A DNA stretch of 64,000 nucleotides from the NCBI RefSeq assembly GCF_006345805.1, contig NC_043019.1, positions 620,001 to 684,000 of the forward strand, written 5' to 3'. This stretch comes from Octopus sinensis. Its lineage: Eukaryota. Position 1 is the first letter of the stretch; the number at the start of each line of letters is the position of its first letter. Shown in pieces: positions 7,071 to 61,335 of this stretch. Made by a program: the position numbers and the translations under genes. The notes under the pieces were generated by a model, which was not told where the DNA came from, did not search any database, and saw only the letters and a list, made by a program, of their open reading frames with translations.

Positions 7071-7074
<4 letters not shown>

Positions 7075-7688
7075 CGGCCACACCTCGAACACTGCTGCCC
7101 ACTGTCGTTTCCCGATACAAGACAAAACATCTCAAGGATTGAATCACCCCAGAGAGCACTCACTAAACGAAATGAAGGCATGGCTGCTCTCGATTATTGG
7201 GACCGCCTTAAAGCTTTGAAGCTCTACTCTCTTCAGCGTCGCCATGAGCGGTATATCATTTGTACGATGGGGAGAATATACCGCCAACTTTGCCCAAACG
7301 ACCTGAACATTAGCTTCAATGTTCATCCAAGAATGGGACCACAGGCCATACGTCCCCTGCCCAATTCAAGATCACAGCATACATGTACACTGCAACATAA
7401 TTTCTTTTCCTCAACGGGCCCTGCCCTATTTAACATTGTCCCGAAAGAGATCAAAGAGGAAAAGGATCCCATCAACTTTAAACGGAGTCTGGATAGATTT
7501 CTTCAAGGAATACCAGATAAGCCACCCATAATTGGATACAACTCACCCAACAAAAACTCACTACTTGAATGGACCACAAACAAAACTTGACTTAAACAGG
7601 ATTTAGATAATCCTATCAGGTGGTGCTATTAAGTTAGACATGGCCTAGACCAATCTTTGGTTGAAACATATCCAGTTTATCTAAGTTA
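7071..7688 (+). mobile_element. 5'-truncated LINE 3' end (CR1/L2-type ORF2 C-terminus plus 3' UTR)
   Basis: RPHLEHCCPL...YWDRLKALKLYSLQRRHER...FKRSLDRFL matches post-RT motifs of CR1/L2-group LINEs; a second copy of the same 3' end lies at 48462-48778; abuts (TA)n on both sides. Confidence 0.8.
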
Positions 7689-9049: not shown

Positions 9050-9375
9050 ATCAACCCCACTGCGTAACTGGTACTTATTTAATCGACCCCGAAAGGATGA
9101 AATGCAAAGTCGACCTCGGCGGAATTTGAACTCAGAACGTAGCGACGGACGAAATACCTATGACTTTACTACCCACAAGGGGCTAAACACAGACAGGACA
9201 AACAAGGACAGACAAACGGATTAAGTCGATTATATCGACTCCAGTGCGTAACTGGTACTTATTTAATCGACCCCGAAAGGATGAAAGGCAAAGTCGTCCT
9301 GGGCGGAATTTGATCTCAGAACGTAGCGGCAGACAAATTATCAAATTCTTTATTGCCCACCGGGGGCTAAACATA
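9050..9375 (-). mobile_element. SINE family B partial tandem bodies
   Basis: Repeated GCGTAACTGGTACTTATTTAATCGACCCCGAAAGG units. Confidence 0.8.
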
Positions 9376-9972
9376 GAAATGGACAGAACAACTGATGGAA
9401 TCAGTAAAGCGATGTGATTTTACATATAATGTAACTTTAGAAATTTACATACAATTTATAAAAATCGAGTCGAATTAACTATATAAAAACATACAAATGA
9501 AGCGATGATCAGGCCACGCTCCGACCCCACAAGCCCCGATCTACCTTTTTTTTTTCGTTTTTTGTTTCGTCTATTCACACGGTTCCTTGCTCGCACAACA
9601 CTCGTGCAACATTCTTCCATCTCTTTTGGAACGTACACTGCGACAGAAACCTGTTATTTTCATTAACAGTGGTGTTTAACAGATGCTAATTCTGATTGAG
9701 TAGGAAATGAATCAGGTGTGACCGTTCCTGTAACTTCCATGTCTTTACCAATATCGTGGAGCACAGAATCACATGTGTAGTTCTCCTGTGGAAAGAAATT
9801 TTCCTTGCTTATCCTTCCAGCCAGAGTTAGCAACCAAATTTGCCTCAAGTTACATTACCCTTTCTACATATATAAACACATTGACATATCCAAAGTCTTT
9901 GAATTTTTAAAACTAAAAAAAAAACTTAAATCATACGTGATTCTGATATCACATAGCATTATACATGTATAG

Positions 9973-14337: not shown

Positions 14338-15215
14338 CTATATATATATATATATATATATGTGTCTGTATATAGATATAATATATGTAGTATGTATGTT
14401 ATGTATGTATTCTGTATATTTACTCTTTTACTTGTTTCAGTCATTGATACTTGATATTGAGGAAAAATATGGAATATTCTTTTGGTGATTTGCATCTTCT
14501 CAATACCGAAGCATGGCTAAAAGCCATATACTGCTCTTTCGTTTAAAGATTGTCCTTGTTAACATCAGCCCGAGACACAGGGCTTTGCAAACTGAAAGGA
14601 AGCCAAGCCTCCGTGAAGTTAATTATTAGATTAAATATTGGAAAGGATCATAAACCTTTTTCAAGTAATAATGGAATGAATATGATTAGAGGAAAGGGAT
14701 ATTCATGAGGAACATTAAACCTCTACTCGCCAGAGCTTTGAAACTCTTCAAATAAAACGTATAAAAATGATTAATTTTCCCCACTGTTTTAGAATATGGA
14801 GATTTGCATGTCTAGTAAAAGATCCATTGAGATGGTAACCATGGTAATCATTATGTTCTGGTTCAAAGCACCGTTGTCCAATTTATTTGTAGACGCTTCT
14901 TTTGGTTCCAAAGATCAGAAAATAGAAACCATTGTGATGAAAATCTTTAACACCCGCTGCTCGGTCTTCTGATGCGTTATTATGCTGGTAAATTATTCCG
15001 TCATCAACACTCAGCCAATTGTCACTTACGAACCATTGAAGTTTGGTGCATCATTTTGCTATAGGTGCAACATTGATTTTGTGGATGCTTTCCTGATTAA
15101 GGGTTTTTCTGAACCAGGTGTTGTCACAACTTAAACAAATATTAAATTTATTTAAATAATTGCACGAAACACGGTGATCTCTAAATTAGTATAAATGATA
15201 CAAGTTTATCAATAC

Positions 15216-15997
15216 CTATTTCTTTACAACACACAAGGGGCTAAACACAGAGAGGACAAACAAGGACAGACAAATGGATTAAGTCGATTATATCGACCCC
15301 AGTGCGTAACTGGTACTTATTTAATCGACCCTGAAAGAATAAAAGGCAAAGTCGACCTCGGCAGAATTTGAACTCAGAACGTAGCGGCAGACGAAATCCA
15401 TATTTCTTTACTACCCACAAGGGGCTAAACACAGAGGGGACAAACAAGAACAAACAATCGAATTAAGTCGATTATATCGACCCCAGTGCGTAACTGGTAC
15501 TTATTTAATCGAGCCTGAAAGGATGAAAGGCAAAGTCGACCGGCGGAATTTGAACTCAGAACGTAGCGGCAGACGAAATACATATTTCTTTACTACCCAC
15601 AAGGGGCTAAACACAGAGGGGACAAACAAGGACATACGAACGGATTAAGTCGATTATATCGACCCAAATGCGTTACTGGTACTTATTTAATCGACCCTGA
15701 AAGAATGAAAGGCAAAGTCGACCTCGGCAGAATTTGAACTCAGAACGTAACGGCAGACGAATACACATTTCTTTACTACTCACAAGGGGCTAAACACAGA
15801 GGGGACAAACAAGGAGAGACAAACGGATTAAGTCGATTATATCGACTCCAGTGCGTAACTGGTACTTAATTTATCGACCCTGAAAGGATGAAAGGCAAAG
15901 TCGACCTCGGCGGATTTTGAACTCAGAGCGTAACGGCAGACGAAATACGGCTAAATATCTCGCCCTGCGTGCCAACGTTTCTGCCAGCTCGCCGCCT
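15216..15997 (-). mobile_element. SINE family B array: one head plus four tandem ~185-bp bodies
   Basis: Four repeats of TTTCTTTAC...CAAGGGGCTAAACACAGAG...GAACTCAGA; the head GGCGGCGAGCTGGCAG occurs once, at 15997. Confidence 0.88.
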
Positions 15998-23369: not shown

Positions 23370-23610
23370 GTAATAATAATAAGAAGAATAAGAATAAGAA
23401 GAATGATGATGATGATGATAATAATATTAATAATAATAATAATATTAATAACAATAATAATAGTAATAATAGGAATAAGAATGAAAATAATAGAAATAAT
23501 GATGCTGCTGCTGATGATGATGATGATGACGACGATGATAATAATGTTGATGATGATGTTGATGACGACAAATGTTGATGATGATGATGATGACGACGAT
23601 GATGATGATT

Positions 23611-23640
<30 letters not shown>
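23214..23640. repeat. Compound (AAT)n/(GAT)n/(GGT)n microsatellite
   Basis: Direct inspection. Confidence 0.95.
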
Positions 23641-23641
<1 letters not shown>

Positions 23642-23775
23642 AGGGATTATGTTCTATGAGTCATCTGGTGTACGTTTATTTGCCTCTAAAACCCCCAGAT
23701 ACATTATTCATTTTCGAACGATGGAATAGCATTTGTAAACTTTACTCTCTTCCCGTGTGTTGTCTTCGCAAATGT

Positions 23776-23875
23776 NNNNNNNNNNNNNNNNNNNNNNNNN
23801 NNNNNNNNNNNNNNNNNNNNNNNNNNNNNNNNNNNNNNNNNNNNNNNNNNNNNNNNNNNNNNNNNNNNNNNNNNN
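23776..23875. other. Assembly gap (100 N)
   Basis: Run of N. Confidence 1.
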
Positions 23876-23953
23876 GGACACAGAAAAAAGAAAGGAGAGA
23901 AAAAGGAGAGATAAATGGTGTTGTGGCTAACGATCTATCTATCTCTATCTATC

Positions 23954-24057
<104 letters not shown>

Positions 24058-24168
24058 ATATATATATATATACAATTGAGGGTAAAATTAGTTCAGTATG
24101 TGGCAAAGTAATTTATTTTACTAAGCCCTAATTATATAATGTAATATTTTGAATATATATATATATAT

Positions 24169-39490: not shown

Positions 39491-39549
<59 letters not shown>

Positions 39550-39689
39550 TGCGGAGATGTACTTGCATAGCTAGTGACTTGATCTGAGATCGTGTGCTGG
39601 AACGAAAACAATTGCAGCGTGGAAGGTGTTTATAAGCCATTTAAGAAACACACAAAAACCGTTAGGTTCACTTCAACATTTAAATTTAA

Positions 39690-39740
39690 TTTGTCAAAAT
39701 ATTTTCGTCGCTTTGTGACTGCGACCTGTTCACTGACAAA
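39690..39740 (-). ncRNA. Minimal type I hammerhead ribozyme with G3-C8 swapped core
   Basis: Minus strand: TTTGTCA GTGAACA G GTCGC AGTCACAAA GCGAC GAA AATATT T TGACAAA; perfect 7-bp helix I, 5-bp helix II, palindromic helix III. Confidence 0.8.
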
Positions 39741-39950
39741 ACATCGTGCTGCATCTGCCAGTTTTCGTGTAAAGGAATATGCACTTTTGTTTTATAAGCC
39801 GAATAGCATTTGAAACAAGATGAAATGGCAGAAAACTTTAGCAAGTGAATGAATACAGTGTCAAACTAATGAAGCTGTATAAACATCAAAAGGTTCGTGA
39901 ATTTCAGTAAGCATTAATTAAGTGTCGAATATTCTTTTTTTTTTTCTAAT

Positions 39951-40488
39951 CTAGGCACAAAGTCCGAAAATTTTACGGAGGGAACAGTCGATTAGATAGA
40001 CCCCAGTACTCAGCTGGTACTTAATTTATCGACCCCGAAATGATGAAAAGTAAAGTCGACCTCGGCGGAATTTGTACTCAAAACGTAAGAAAGACGAAAT
40101 ACTTGTTTCTTTACTACCCACAAGGGGCTAAACACAGAGCGGACAAACAAGGACAGACAAACGGATTAAGTCGATTATATCGGCCCCAGTGCGCAACTGG
40201 TACTTAATTTATCGACCCCGAAATGATGAAAAGCAAAGCCGACCTCGGCGGAATTTGTACTCAAAACATAAAGACAGACGAAATACCTATTTCTTTATTA
40301 CCCACAAGGGGCTAAACACAGAGGGGACAAACAAGGAAAGACATAGGTATTAAGTCGATTACATCGACCCCAGTGCGTAACTGGTACTTAATTTATCGAC
40401 CCCGAAATGATGAAAAGCAAAGTCGATCTCGGCGGAATTTGTACTCAAAACATAGACAGACGAAATACCGCTTAGCATTTCGCCGCCT
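39951..40488 (-). mobile_element. SINE family B trimer
   Basis: Three bodies and one partly deleted head; the last body ends in a different tail. Confidence 0.85.
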
Positions 40489-50041: not shown

Positions 50042-50409
50042 TGATTTATAAAGCTTTTTTGCAGCCTCCGCAATTATGTATAATTCTTAGTCCAATCGAA
50101 GTGTCAGCATGCATATTAATGCAACAATATCAACCGGAGCGCGTTTGTCATAACGAAGACAATCACAGAAAAATGCCGAAACGAACTCGACACGCAAAGA
50201 TCGGTGGTACCCCCCCACCACCAGTCATTCTCGCTAACGCTCAAAAATTTCTTTGGCGCATCGTCTTGGACTATTAATTTAACCAAGACTGGATTTGAAC
50301 ATACAGTGGGAAAATCCAGATTAAATACCACAAGGCATTCTATGCAGTTCTGCAAACTCACCTCATTGAGGTTAATATGCGTAAGATCTCGTCATCAAAT
50401 CAAAGTAGA

Positions 50410-50864
50410 GATTTCAAACTTAAAACCTTCAAAGCCACCCACAGTCGAAGCAATTCTACTATATGGCTCAGAAACCTGGACGTTATCAAAGAAGCTTGAG
50501 AGGCGGTTGGATGGAATTTACACTCACCTCCTTATGAGAGCTCAAAATCTCTCGTGGAAGCGTCATCTAACCAAAGTAGAAATATATGGCAAACTACCAC
50601 CTCCATCGTCTATTATGAAAGGTAGAAGAGTCCAGTTTGCTGGACATTGTTGTAGAGCTGAAAACGAGGTAATTTCTACTCTTCTCTTCTGGAAGCCATC
50701 TGCTCGCGATACCAGAGGGCGCACACTCTCCTACCCTGATGTAATCTCCAGGGATACAGGCATCCCGCAACAGGACCTCCGTAATGCTATGATGGACCAT
50801 GAAGTCTGGCTTAACATAGTAAATTCCATTGTCTCGACGATGGTCGAACAATGATGATGATGAG
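50410..50864 (+). mobile_element. RTE-type LINE 3' end
   Basis: VEAILLYGSETWTLSKKLERRLDG...RRVQFAGHCCR...GR...W; the stop runs directly into a (TGA)n tail. Confidence 0.85.
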
Positions 50865-56879: not shown

Positions 56880-59800
56880 AGTATGTATGTATGTATGTAT
56901 GTATGTATGTATGTATGTATGTATGTATGTATGTATGTATGTATGTATGTATGTATGTATATGTGTATGTATGTATGTATGTATGTATTATATATGTATA
57001 TTATTATATATTATATAATATTTTATTATATATTATATATTATATATTATATACTATAGATTACATATTATTAAATTATATATTATATATTATATATGTA
57101 TATTATTATATTATATATGCATGTATTATATATGTGTGTATGTATGTATGAATGTATGTATGTATGTATGTATGCATATTTGTATGTATGTATGTATGTA
57201 TGTATGCATTATATATGTATGAATATTTGTATGTATGTATGTATGTATGTATGTATGCATTATATATGTATGCATATTTGTATGTATGTATGTATGTATG
57301 CATTATATATGTATGAATATTTGTATGTATGTATGTATGTATGTATGCATTATATATGTATGCATATTTGTATGTATGTATGTATGTATGTATGCATTAT
57401 ATATGTATGAATATTTGTATGTATGTATGTATGTATGTATGCATTATATATGTATGAATATTTGTATGTATGTATGTATGTATGTATGTATGCATTATAT
57501 ATGTATGCATATTTGTATGTATGTATGTATGTATGTATGCATTATATATGTATGCATATTTGTATGTATGTATGTATGTATGTATGTATGTATGTATGCA
57601 TTATATATGTATGAATATTTGTATGTATGTATGTATGTATGCATTATATATGTATGAATATTTGTATGTATGTATGTATGTATGTATGCATTATATATGT
57701 ATGCATATTTGTATGTATGTATGTATGTATGTATGCATTATATATGTATGAATATTTGTATGTATGTATGTATGTATGTATGCATTATATATGTATGAAT
57801 ATTTGTATGTATGTATGTATGTATGTATGTATGCATTATATATGTATGGATATTTGTATGTATGTATGTATGTATGTATGTATGCATTATATATGTATGA
57901 ATATTTGTATGTATGTATGTATGTATGTATGCATTATATATGTATGAATATTTGTATGTATGTATGTATGTATGTATGCATTATATATGTATGCATATTT
58001 GTATGTATGTATGTATGGTGCATTATATTGTATGAATATTTGTATGTATGTATGTATGTATGTATGCATTATATATGTATGCATATTTGTATGTATGTAT
58101 GTATGTATTATATATGTATATTATTTATATTTATAATATTTTATTATATATTATATATATATATTATATACATAGATTACATATTATTAAATTATGTATT
58201 ATATATTATATATGTATTTATTATATTATATATGCATGTATTATATATGTGTGTATGTATGTATGTATGTCATGTATGTATGTATGTATGCATTTTGTAT
58301 GTATGTATGTATGTATGTATGCATTATATATGTATGAATATTTGTATGTATGTAGTATGTAATGTAGCATTATATATGTATGCATATTTGTATGTATGTT
58401 GTATGTATGTATGCATTATATATGTAATGGATGAATTTTGTATGTATGTATGTATGTATGCATTATATATGTATGAATATTTGTATGTATGTATGTATGT
58501 CGTATTCATTATATATGTATGAATATTTGTATGTATGTATGTATGTATGTATGCATTATATATGTATGAATATTTGTATGTATGTATGTATGTATGCATT
58601 ATATATGTATGCATTTTGGTATGTATGTATGTATGTATGTATGCATTATATATGTATGAATATTTGTATGTATGTATGTATGTATGTATGCATTATATAT
58701 GTATGATATTTGTATGTATGTATGTATGTATGTATGCATTATATATGTATGAATATTTGTATGTATGTATGTATGTATGTATGCATTATTATGTATAATA
58801 TTTGTATGTATGTATTATGCATTATATATGTATGAATATTTGTATGTATGTATGTATGCATTATATATGTATGCATTTTGTATTATATATGTCTGTCGTA
58901 TCATATTATGTATGAATATTTGTATGTATGTATGTATGCATGTATCATATATGTATGCATATTGGTATGTATTATGTATGCATGTATCATATATGTATGC
59001 ATATGGTATGTATGTATGTATGCATGTATCATATATGTATGAATATTTGTATGTATGTATGTATGCATGTATTATATTGTATGCATATTGGTATGTATGT
59101 ATGTATACATGTATCATATATGTATGCATATTGGTATGTATGTATGTATGCATGTATCATATATGTATGCATATTGGTATGTATGTATGTATGCATGTAT
59201 CATATATGTATGAATATTTGTATGTATGTATGTATGCATGTATTATATATGTATGCATATTGGTATGTATGTATGTATACATGTATCATATATGTATGCA
59301 TATTGGTATGTATGTATGTATGCATGTATCATATATGTATGAATATTTGTATGTATGTATGTATGCATGTATCATATATGTATGCATATTGGTATGTATG
59401 TATGTATGCATGTATCATATATGTATGAATATTTGTATGTATGTATGTATGCATGTATCATATATGTATGCATAGGTATATGTATGTATGTATGCATGAT
59501 ATTATGTATGAATATTTGTATGTATGTATGTATGCATGTATCATATATGTATGCATATTGGTATGTATGTATGTATGCATGTATCATATATGTATGAATA
59601 TTTGTATGTATGTATGTATGCATGTATCATATATGTATGCATATTGGTATGTATGTATGTATGCATGTATCATATATGTATGAATATTTATGTTGTATGT
59701 ATGTATGTGCATGTATCATATATGTATGCATATTGGTATGTATGTATGTATGCATGTATCATATGTATGAATATTTGTATGTATGTATGTATGCATGTAT

Positions 59801-60400
59801 CAATATGTATGCATATTGGTATGTATGTATGTATGCATGTATCATGTATGTATGAATATTTGTATGTATGTATGTATGCATGTATCATATATGTATGCAT
59901 ATTGGTATGTATGTATGTATGCATATATCATATATGTATGAATATTGTATGTATGTATGTATGCATGTATCATATATGTATGGATATTGGTATGTATGTA
60001 TGTATGCATGTATCATAATATGTATGAATATTGTGTATGTATGTATGCATGTATCATATATGTATGCATATTGGTATGTATGTATGTATGCATGTATCAT
60101 ATATGTATGAATATTTGTATGTATGTATGTATGCATGTATCATATATGTATGCATATTTGTATGTATGTATGTATGCATGTATCATATATGTATGCATAT
60201 TGGTATGTATGTATGTATGCATGTATCATATATGTATGAATATTTGTATGTATGTATGTATGCATGTATCATATATGTATGCATATTGGTATGTATGTAT
60301 GTATGTATGTATGCATTATATATCTATGAATATTTGTATGTATGTATGTATGTATGTATGTATGTATGTATGTATCATATATGTATGCATATTGGTATGT
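56880..60400. repeat. 3.5-kb (TATG)n-derived higher-order tandem array
   Basis: Units (TATG)n-CATTATATATGTATG(A/C)ATATTTG, switching near 58900 to (TATG)n-CATGTATCATATATGTATG(C/A)ATATT(G/T)G. Confidence 0.92.
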
Positions 60401-60761: not shown

Positions 60762-61335
60762 AGGCGGTGATCTGGTAGAAACGTTAGCACGCTAGGCGAA
60801 CTGCTTAGCGGTATTTCGTCTGCCGCTACGTTCTGAGTTCAAATTCCGCCGATGTCGACTTTGCCTTTCATCCTTTCGGGGTCGATTAAATAAGTACCAG
60901 TTACGCACTGGTGTCGATAAAATCGACTTAATACCTTTGTCTGTCCTTGTTTATCCCCTCCATGTTTAACCCAATGTGGGTAATAAAGAAATAGGTATTT
61001 CGTCTGCCGCTTCGTTCTGAGTTCAAATTCCGCCGAGGTCAACTTTGCCATTCCTCCTTTCGGGTTCGATTAAATAAATACCAGTTACGCACTGGGGTCG
61101 ATATAATCGAATTAATCCGTTTTTCTGTCCTTGTTTGTCCTCTCTGTGTTTAGTCCCTTGTGGGTAGTAAAAAAATAGGTATTTTGTCTGTCTTTACGTT
61201 CTGAGTTCAATTTCCACTGAGGTCGACCTTGCCATTCATTCTTTCGGGATAGATAAAATAAGTACCAGTTGCGTACTGGGGCCGATCTATTCTCCACCAA
61301 AAAAATTGGGCCATGTGTCTAGAGTAGAAAAGGAT
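60762..61335 (+). mobile_element. SINE family B trimer
   Basis: One head and three bodies, junctions AAATAG|GTATTT; the last body has the alternative tail. Confidence 0.85.

Follow-up and report, generated by a model that had tools for sequence, protein, structure and literature searches.

A hammerhead motif with a swapped G3-C8 core as a family trait of a Penelope-like terminal repeat in the Octopus sinensis genome

The window, by which we mean the whole 64-kb stretch of DNA analyzed here, carries on its minus strand (39740-39690) the layout of a minimal type I hammerhead in which G3-C8 replaces C3-G8. Is this a ribozyme that works and is kept by selection at this locus, or a trait that the locus inherited with the DNA around it? 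The literal core CUGANGA (C3, G8) is absent from the motif, which reads GUGAACA with the two bases swapped. The original prediction had described a 7-bp helix I, the core GUGAACA, an extra G, a 5-bp helix II, GAAA and AAUAUU, and our descriptor scan recovered each of these parts. The scan also bore out the reading of the whole as a hammerhead motif in which the 3-8 pair is kept, and the predicted cut 3' of 39697 agrees with hammerhead numbering. The coordinates are collected in Table 1.

Table 1. Features of the hammerhead motif and of the repeat that contains it (window positions)
Feature	Position	Strand	Remarks
Helix I, 5' strand	39734..39740	-	7 Watson-Crick pairs with 39696-39690
Core G3 U4 G5 A6 A7 C8 A9 (GUGAACA)	39727..39733	-	G3 = 39733, C8 = 39728; family-wide state
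Extra G between position 9 and helix II	39726	-	motif scan; feature of Penelope minimal hammerheads (passages of PMC4209133)
Helix II and loop 2	39707..39725	-	5 pairs (39725-39721 / 39711-39707), the first G10.1-C11.1; loop of 9 nt (39720-39712)
G12 A13 A14 A15.1 (GAAA)	39703..39706	-	motif scan
Palindrome AAUAUU	39698..39703	-	helix III predicted only between two copies
Predicted cut, after U17 (39697)	39696..39697	-	+60/+61 of the repeat; from hammerhead numbering
Helix I, 3' strand	39690..39696	-	motif scan
Solo terminal repeat (pseudo-LTR, 208 nt) of Penelope-like retrotransposon	39549..39756	-	+1 = 39756; genomic copies 95-97% identical
'Tail' of ~57 nt between the family's two alternative 3' ends	39549..39606	-	long end present in the window copy
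(TA)n tract at the 3' end of the repeat	39491..39549	.	likely insertion target

Helices I and II flank the core and the open end lies at helix I, based on the descriptor scan and on folding. A Watson-Crick 3-8 pair is present together with U4, G5, A6, A9, G12, A13, A14, the A15.1-U16.1 pair and H17, and the same catalytic states are the majority in the 78-85 family copies available per position. The motif has the extra base after position 9, the G10.1-C11.1 pair and the palindromic 15.2-16.2 segment that passages of PMC4209133 describe. It is the sole match to the strict descriptor in the window; the relaxed descriptor gives four matches, and the remaining three have helices of 3-4 pairs. No match with a helix I of at least 7 and a helix II of at least 5 pairs appeared in 60 block shuffles of the window, and no Rfam model reached its gathering score in the window. 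The 55-mer folds into helices I and II at -13.7 kcal/mol (z -2.5), and 3 of 200 shuffles were equally stable. By the same kind of folding, closing helix III inside one molecule would cost 5.4 kcal/mol, and the bare two-strand AAUAUU duplex is predicted at -0.2 kcal/mol. In its 208-nt context helix I is predicted at only ~10%, with a competing fold, which counts against the explanation that we prefer below.

The motif is a family trait of a repeat with thousands of copies, and the flagged locus taken alone is ordinary repeat DNA. A search with 39553-39760 returned 1,980 candidate copies, 40 of which were scored (95-97% identity). A 20-mer over helix I and the core, in which positions 3 and 8 were left free, has 6,114 exact matches in the genome, and a 21-mer from the 3' part of the repeat has 7,203. 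Most copies are solo or form inverted pairs, and their ends are fixed at +1 and +150/+208 (93 sampled copies); each inverted pair joins one long and one short 3' end; 56 of 96 anchored copies extend to +157, the long 3' end. They mostly finish in TA runs, and an inverted truncated partner is frequent at the 5' end. The genome also holds a few short tandem arrays (L366, L380); none was found at the window locus, where the single copy of the repeat adjoins a TA tract, its likely insertion target, and is accompanied by no ORF piece of the element. The motif had been proposed as the best candidate for an active ribozyme in the window; it is indeed the only strict match there, but it is an inherited family trait, with G3-C8 in 5,567 of the 6,114 matches (91%).

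The repeat is continuous with a larger element. In 422 exact copies the sequence extends upstream beyond the short unit and, after ~0.9-1.1 kb of 3' UTR rich in microsatellites, reaches an ORF. The repeat is joined to the ORF leader at 25 places in the genome, two loci (L365 and L371) are organized repeat-ORF-repeat, and the long frame starts downstream of the repeat in this family. In one copy (L101) an open frame of 1,042 aa contains YVDD, a C-x3-C-x2-C linker and GIY-YIG, and its C-terminal 427 aa match PF01541 (E 3.3e-5, above the cut-off). At E ≤ 0.01, Pfam assigned no reverse transcriptase (RT) family to the L101 frame as a whole, and its RT match for a neighbor family is weak (E 0.0022). 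The RT of L101 is therefore read by eye from motifs and from relatives. Relatives of the L101 protein in other organisms share 34-56% identity, and most of those aligned have a linker resembling C-x3-C-x2-C. Pseudo-LTRs, an inverted 5'-truncated partner, a tail and a (TA)n target are all present in the family. By these features the element classifies as a Penelope-like retrotransposon, probably of the Neptune/Nematis type (passages of PMC8557442).

If the swapped core were maintained in each copy, positions 3 and 8 should be constrained. The expectation that G3-C8 is fixed across genomic copies fails in the strict sense: 189 matches are changed at position 3 only, 342 at position 8 only and 16 at both, giving 3.3% at position 3 and 5.8% at position 8, versus 2.1% (119 matches) at the free position 7. 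The 16 double changes compare with 11.6 expected under independence, and four of them restore a pair, compared to 5.8 expected, which is no excess. Thus the dispersed copies drift, since positions 3 and 8 are no less variable than position 7 and pair-restoring changes are not in excess. A C3-G8 subfamily within the family was considered and rejected, as none of the 16 double changes gives C3-G8. Variants that distinguish subfamilies fall at 5 of 9 loop-2 positions versus 1 of 42 core and stem positions, the one exception being an A>G that keeps a U-G pair. Downstream of the ribozyme ~9 of 140 positions have such variants, so that ~2.7 would be expected in 42; the test of conservation within the family is therefore modest, since 1 in 42 is not far below this background.

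Comparison with the neighbor family is more informative about the fold. Of the other families found in the genome, this one is the closest (54-55% protein identity; loci L106-L114 and L320-L339), with a hammerhead at the matching place that is C3-G8 in 97 among the first 100 of 2,648 matches. Compared by eye, the motifs of the two families differ by double changes at 3-8, at helix I pairs 3 and 5, at helix II pair 4 and at 15.2-16.2. Because five compensatory pairs separate the families, selection acting on the lineage of the element has likely preserved the fold, each double change counting as one event since the comparison is of two families only. In the neighbor motif one helix I pair is broken and position 9 is C, which counts against this inference; its helix III segment is not a palindrome, and U and C alternate at position 17. 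The proposal of selection on ribozyme function can thus be retained for the fold, and selection likely acts at the level of the retrotransposon lineage, but not at the window locus. Further hammerhead-like motifs in the loci examined are C3-G8. Those at L110:8242-8342, L120:7718-7780, L084 and L320 have a long helix II and a palindromic helix III, occur in inverted pairs, and probably belong to other Penelope-like families.

Transcription of the repeat bears on whether the window locus could itself be an active ribozyme under selection, for instance one that cuts a host transcript. We mapped three raw RNA runs from one study of a related organism (~6 in 100 reads of each) to the repeat and to the repeat-ORF junction. 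Copies of the repeat do occur in these reads, and the window copy retains every core and stem position, its private changes lying in the leader, loop 2 and the 3' part. However, the mate directions are about equal, variants are many, and depth is 200-360 per direction on the repeat versus 0-7 on the ORF (~100-fold), as in passive read-through; the reads show the presence of the repeat in RNA, not its strand, start or cleavage. Moreover, this locus is one among thousands of copies that are 95-97% identical, an age at which an intact core is expected, no partner copy lies within 64 kb, and copies drift at core positions. We regard selection for an active ribozyme at the window locus as highly improbable. 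The dimer that had been suggested fares similarly: the architecture fits the dimer type, but the repeat is solo, and with no second copy in the window it has no dimer partner in cis.

The ends of the insertions record which RNAs were copied. We mapped 5' ends in the 93 copies with enough flank among the first 100 of the 7,203 matches to the 3' anchor. The ends of 49 copies lie at -5..+8, 15 at +9..+20, 7 at +21..+50, 3 at +51..+62 and 11 further down, and eight copies run upstream, two of which look like chance microsatellite matches. The three ends near the cut site (+60/+61) equal the number expected from an even spread of the 21 truncated copies. The copied RNAs were uncut, as 5' ends accumulate at +1 rather than around the cut site, but the lack of cut copies does not show a lack of cutting, because cut RNA may not be copied.

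The base next to the pile-up suggests how these RNAs begin. Copies that start at +1 have G at -1 in 40 of 62 cases, while copies that continue upstream have C there in 10 of 12, and positions beyond -1 are not G-rich. An untemplated G is attributed to cap copying in L1 and SVA elements (passages of PMC3287187), and the Penelope start site lies inside its repeat (passages of PMC2377424). The extra G at -1 is likely a copy of the cap, and we infer a capped transcription start at +1. In the window copy the base at -1 is C instead of G, which counts against the cap reading for this copy. A 3-nt first exon, instead of a capped start, is possible: a sequence resembling a branch point and acceptor overlaps the inferred start, just upstream of +1 to +3 (L031-L060). 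No upstream exon common to the 93 copies was found, nor a GT-AG joint in the reads, the query for which was without a possible donor.

Taken together, we consider it probable that the window locus holds a minimal type I hammerhead whose G3-C8 core is common to its family, that this hammerhead sits in the terminal repeat belonging to a Penelope-like retrotransposon and likely cuts slowly and only as a dimer or with the element's protein, and that the window copy is a solo repeat likely derived from capped, uncut RNA and likely not under selection. In a tandem element, transcription would start at +1 of the leading repeat, and a nicked TA tract would let the element's RT prime internally, either at +150 or at +208. 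Priming in the leading repeat, or on a short solo-repeat transcript, would carry RT to the cap and yield a 150- or 208-nt copy with the extra G, while priming in the trailing repeat would let RT continue into the 3' UTR and ORF. The AAUAUU of the ribozyme would pair with its counterpart in another copy on the same RNA molecule, with cutting at +60/+61. Since either the cap or the priming sites would be missing from cut RNAs, cutting would limit, not drive, transposition.

Published activities suggest that such cutting would be inefficient. According to passages of PMC4209133, minimal hammerheads of Penelope elements do not cut as monomers and cut weakly as dimers. For the Anolis element, passages of PMC11167929 report that C3G and G8C each abolish cleavage, that cleavage needs a protein and is not needed for insertion, and that RT starts at two internal sites. 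The C3G/G8C double change, which had been taken to restore activity, is indeed published as a rescue there, but a partial, not a full, one. Given weak dimers, partial rescue and a need for protein, together with the unstable helix III and a helix I at ~10%, slow, partner-dependent cutting is expected, and our model would predict little or no cutting at the window solo copy.

Some of the same evidence would be compatible with a family hammerhead that is catalytically dead, whose fold is either inherited or retained as a structure that binds protein or lies near the promoter, G3-C8 having been fixed as cutting became unimportant. Neither the insertion ends nor the reads pile up at the cut site; the three RNA runs have no pile-up of read ends anywhere, although fragmented cDNA from a related organism makes this a weak test, and missing cut copies are expected either way, as cut RNAs would go uncopied. 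The all-AU helix III and the competing fold point in the same direction, as does the finding, in passages of PMC11167929, that cleavage of the Anolis element is dispensable for insertion in vitro. A dead ribozyme, however, gives no evident reason for restoring a Watson-Crick pair exactly at 3-8 while retaining U4, G5, A6, A9, G12-A15.1, U16.1 and a non-G at 17, nor for the five compensatory pairs that separate the neighbor family. We therefore judge a dead family hammerhead unlikely.

Recurrent G3.G8 cores fit a dead hammerhead and also count against our preferred explanation. C8>G, which produces this core, makes up 41 among the first 100 position-8 changes, compared to 17 for G3>C among the first 100 position-3 changes. 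The G3.G8 core is inactive when engineered, C3G abolishing cleavage in the Anolis element (passages of PMC11167929), and is presumed dead here; it is common, exceeding expectation both across the genome and in the internal repeats of tandem copies, and it is present in ORF-linked repeats. It recurs across subfamilies and between near-identical neighboring units (e.g. L365:8494-8701, L366:6554-6762 and L380:2565-3484), with adjacent C8 and G8 units differing at 2 positions in 132 nt. G8 is present in 5 of 6 rows of repeats that have an upstream continuation as well as a junction with the ORF leader, counted as 3 of 4 independent cases; the other upstream-continuing repeats have it in 5 of 73, two of these having been picked for G8. 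A general advantage of dead ribozymes fails to explain these cores, because the other catalytic positions have no such excess of changes. An error hot spot of the RT is a possible source of C8>G. A single G3.G8 subfamily, surviving as an intermediate of the core swap, is unsupported: the tree requires 38 changes for 49 rows, versus a mean of 45.5 after shuffling, although only 7 of its 245 branches are well supported.

A bolder reading, which we put forward tentatively and regard as doubtful, would make this the first natural G3-C8 hammerhead, with a flipped, attenuated core fixed as the retrotransposon's brake on itself. Cut RNA would drop from the transposition pool, and the dead G3.G8 core would be favored in internal repeats of tandem copies (3 of 4 independent cases versus 5 of 73 other upstream-continuing copies) as only uncut multimers would be copied across. 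If so, Penelope hammerheads would have a negative role, not one in processing. That role is called open in passages of both PMC8557442 and PMC4209133, and the family makes the alternatives of processing signal, brake and relic testable with a few short RNAs. It offers as a natural core swap what was previously an engineered rescue control, the same genome contains a C3-G8 neighbor family to compare it with, and the ends of its thousands of insertions indicate that the copied RNA was uncut and probably capped.

The abundance of a short non-coding repeat with a type I hammerhead also recalls a retrozyme, in which monomers would be freed by two cuts, circularized and reverse-transcribed by rolling circle. 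An origin of such elements from Penelope repeats has been proposed (passages of 10.64898/2026.07.22.740005), and the short arrays at L366 and L380 would be in keeping with it. We nevertheless give a retrozyme very little weight: copies are mostly solo or inverted, end at +1 and +150/+208 instead of at the cut site and are not circularly permuted, the window locus has no tandem array, and the repeat forms a continuous unit with an autonomous ORF. A DNA transposon (MITE) was also considered in view of the 6-nt inverted end motif; this was rejected, since the ends lack symmetry and are joined without a break to an RT ORF.

The family most resembles the metazoan Penelope minimal type I hammerheads (Cervera and De la Pena 2014, passages of PMC4209133) in its place in terminal repeats, the lack of a stable helix III, the palindrome at 15.2-16.2, the extra base between 9 and 10.1, the G10.1-C11.1 pair and the mostly solo or close inverted copies. 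It differs from those passages in G3-C8, where C3-G8 and U3-A8 are reported, and in its 7-pair helix I, compared to 4-5 pairs described for Schistosoma. Natural 3-8 covariation has a precedent in the U3-A8 variants (Perreault et al. 2011, passages of PMC3088659; Schistosoma Cercyon, passages of PMC4209133), although U3-A8 is a double transition and G3-C8 requires two transversions. With PAc, the Poseidon element of Anolis (Frangieh et al. 2024, passages of PMC11167929), the family shares two internal RT starts that give a tail, an AT-rich target, uncut RNA as template and no reads ending at the cut site. PAc, however, is C3-G8 and its ORF starts inside the ribozyme, whereas the present family has its long frame downstream of the repeat, a tail of ~57 nt and a protein with the CX2-5CxxC linker known from Neptune/Nematis elements. 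Those elements (Craig et al. 2021, passages of PMC8557442) likewise have RT with a C-terminal GIY-YIG, the CX2-5CxxC linker, pseudo-LTRs, an inverted 5'-truncated partner, a tail, (TA)n targets and a hammerhead near the 3' end; a long microsatellite-rich 3' UTR, the swapped core and the longer tail (30-40 nt in those elements) set the present family apart. We found G3-C8 as an engineered change in passages of PMC11167929 and PMC3884650, and no natural G3-C8 core in the literature searched, which included passages of PMC6155905, PMC6765202 and PMC2920678, with supplements and a 2017 survey of Penelope hammerheads outside its scope; an earlier record is quite possible.

Several other features accompany the repeat. 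Tandem units of 183-184 bp at window positions 9050-9391, 15211-15948, 39986-40469 and 60810-61286 belong to one dispersed repeat, which we take to resemble a tRNA-derived SINE. Approximately 80 copies of a 43-bp microsatellite-derived satellite with a strong strand skew occupy 56892-60372. The run of N within 23566-24108 is an assembly gap, appearing as X in translation. Elsewhere in the genome, a second Penelope-type ORF (L066, G000:C1:75083501-75093500) has a 493-aa frame beside one of 345 aa, the latter presumably resembling a transposase. Open frames at window positions 7072-7587 and 50120-50851 are, we assume, similar to C-terminal fragments of LINE reverse transcriptases.
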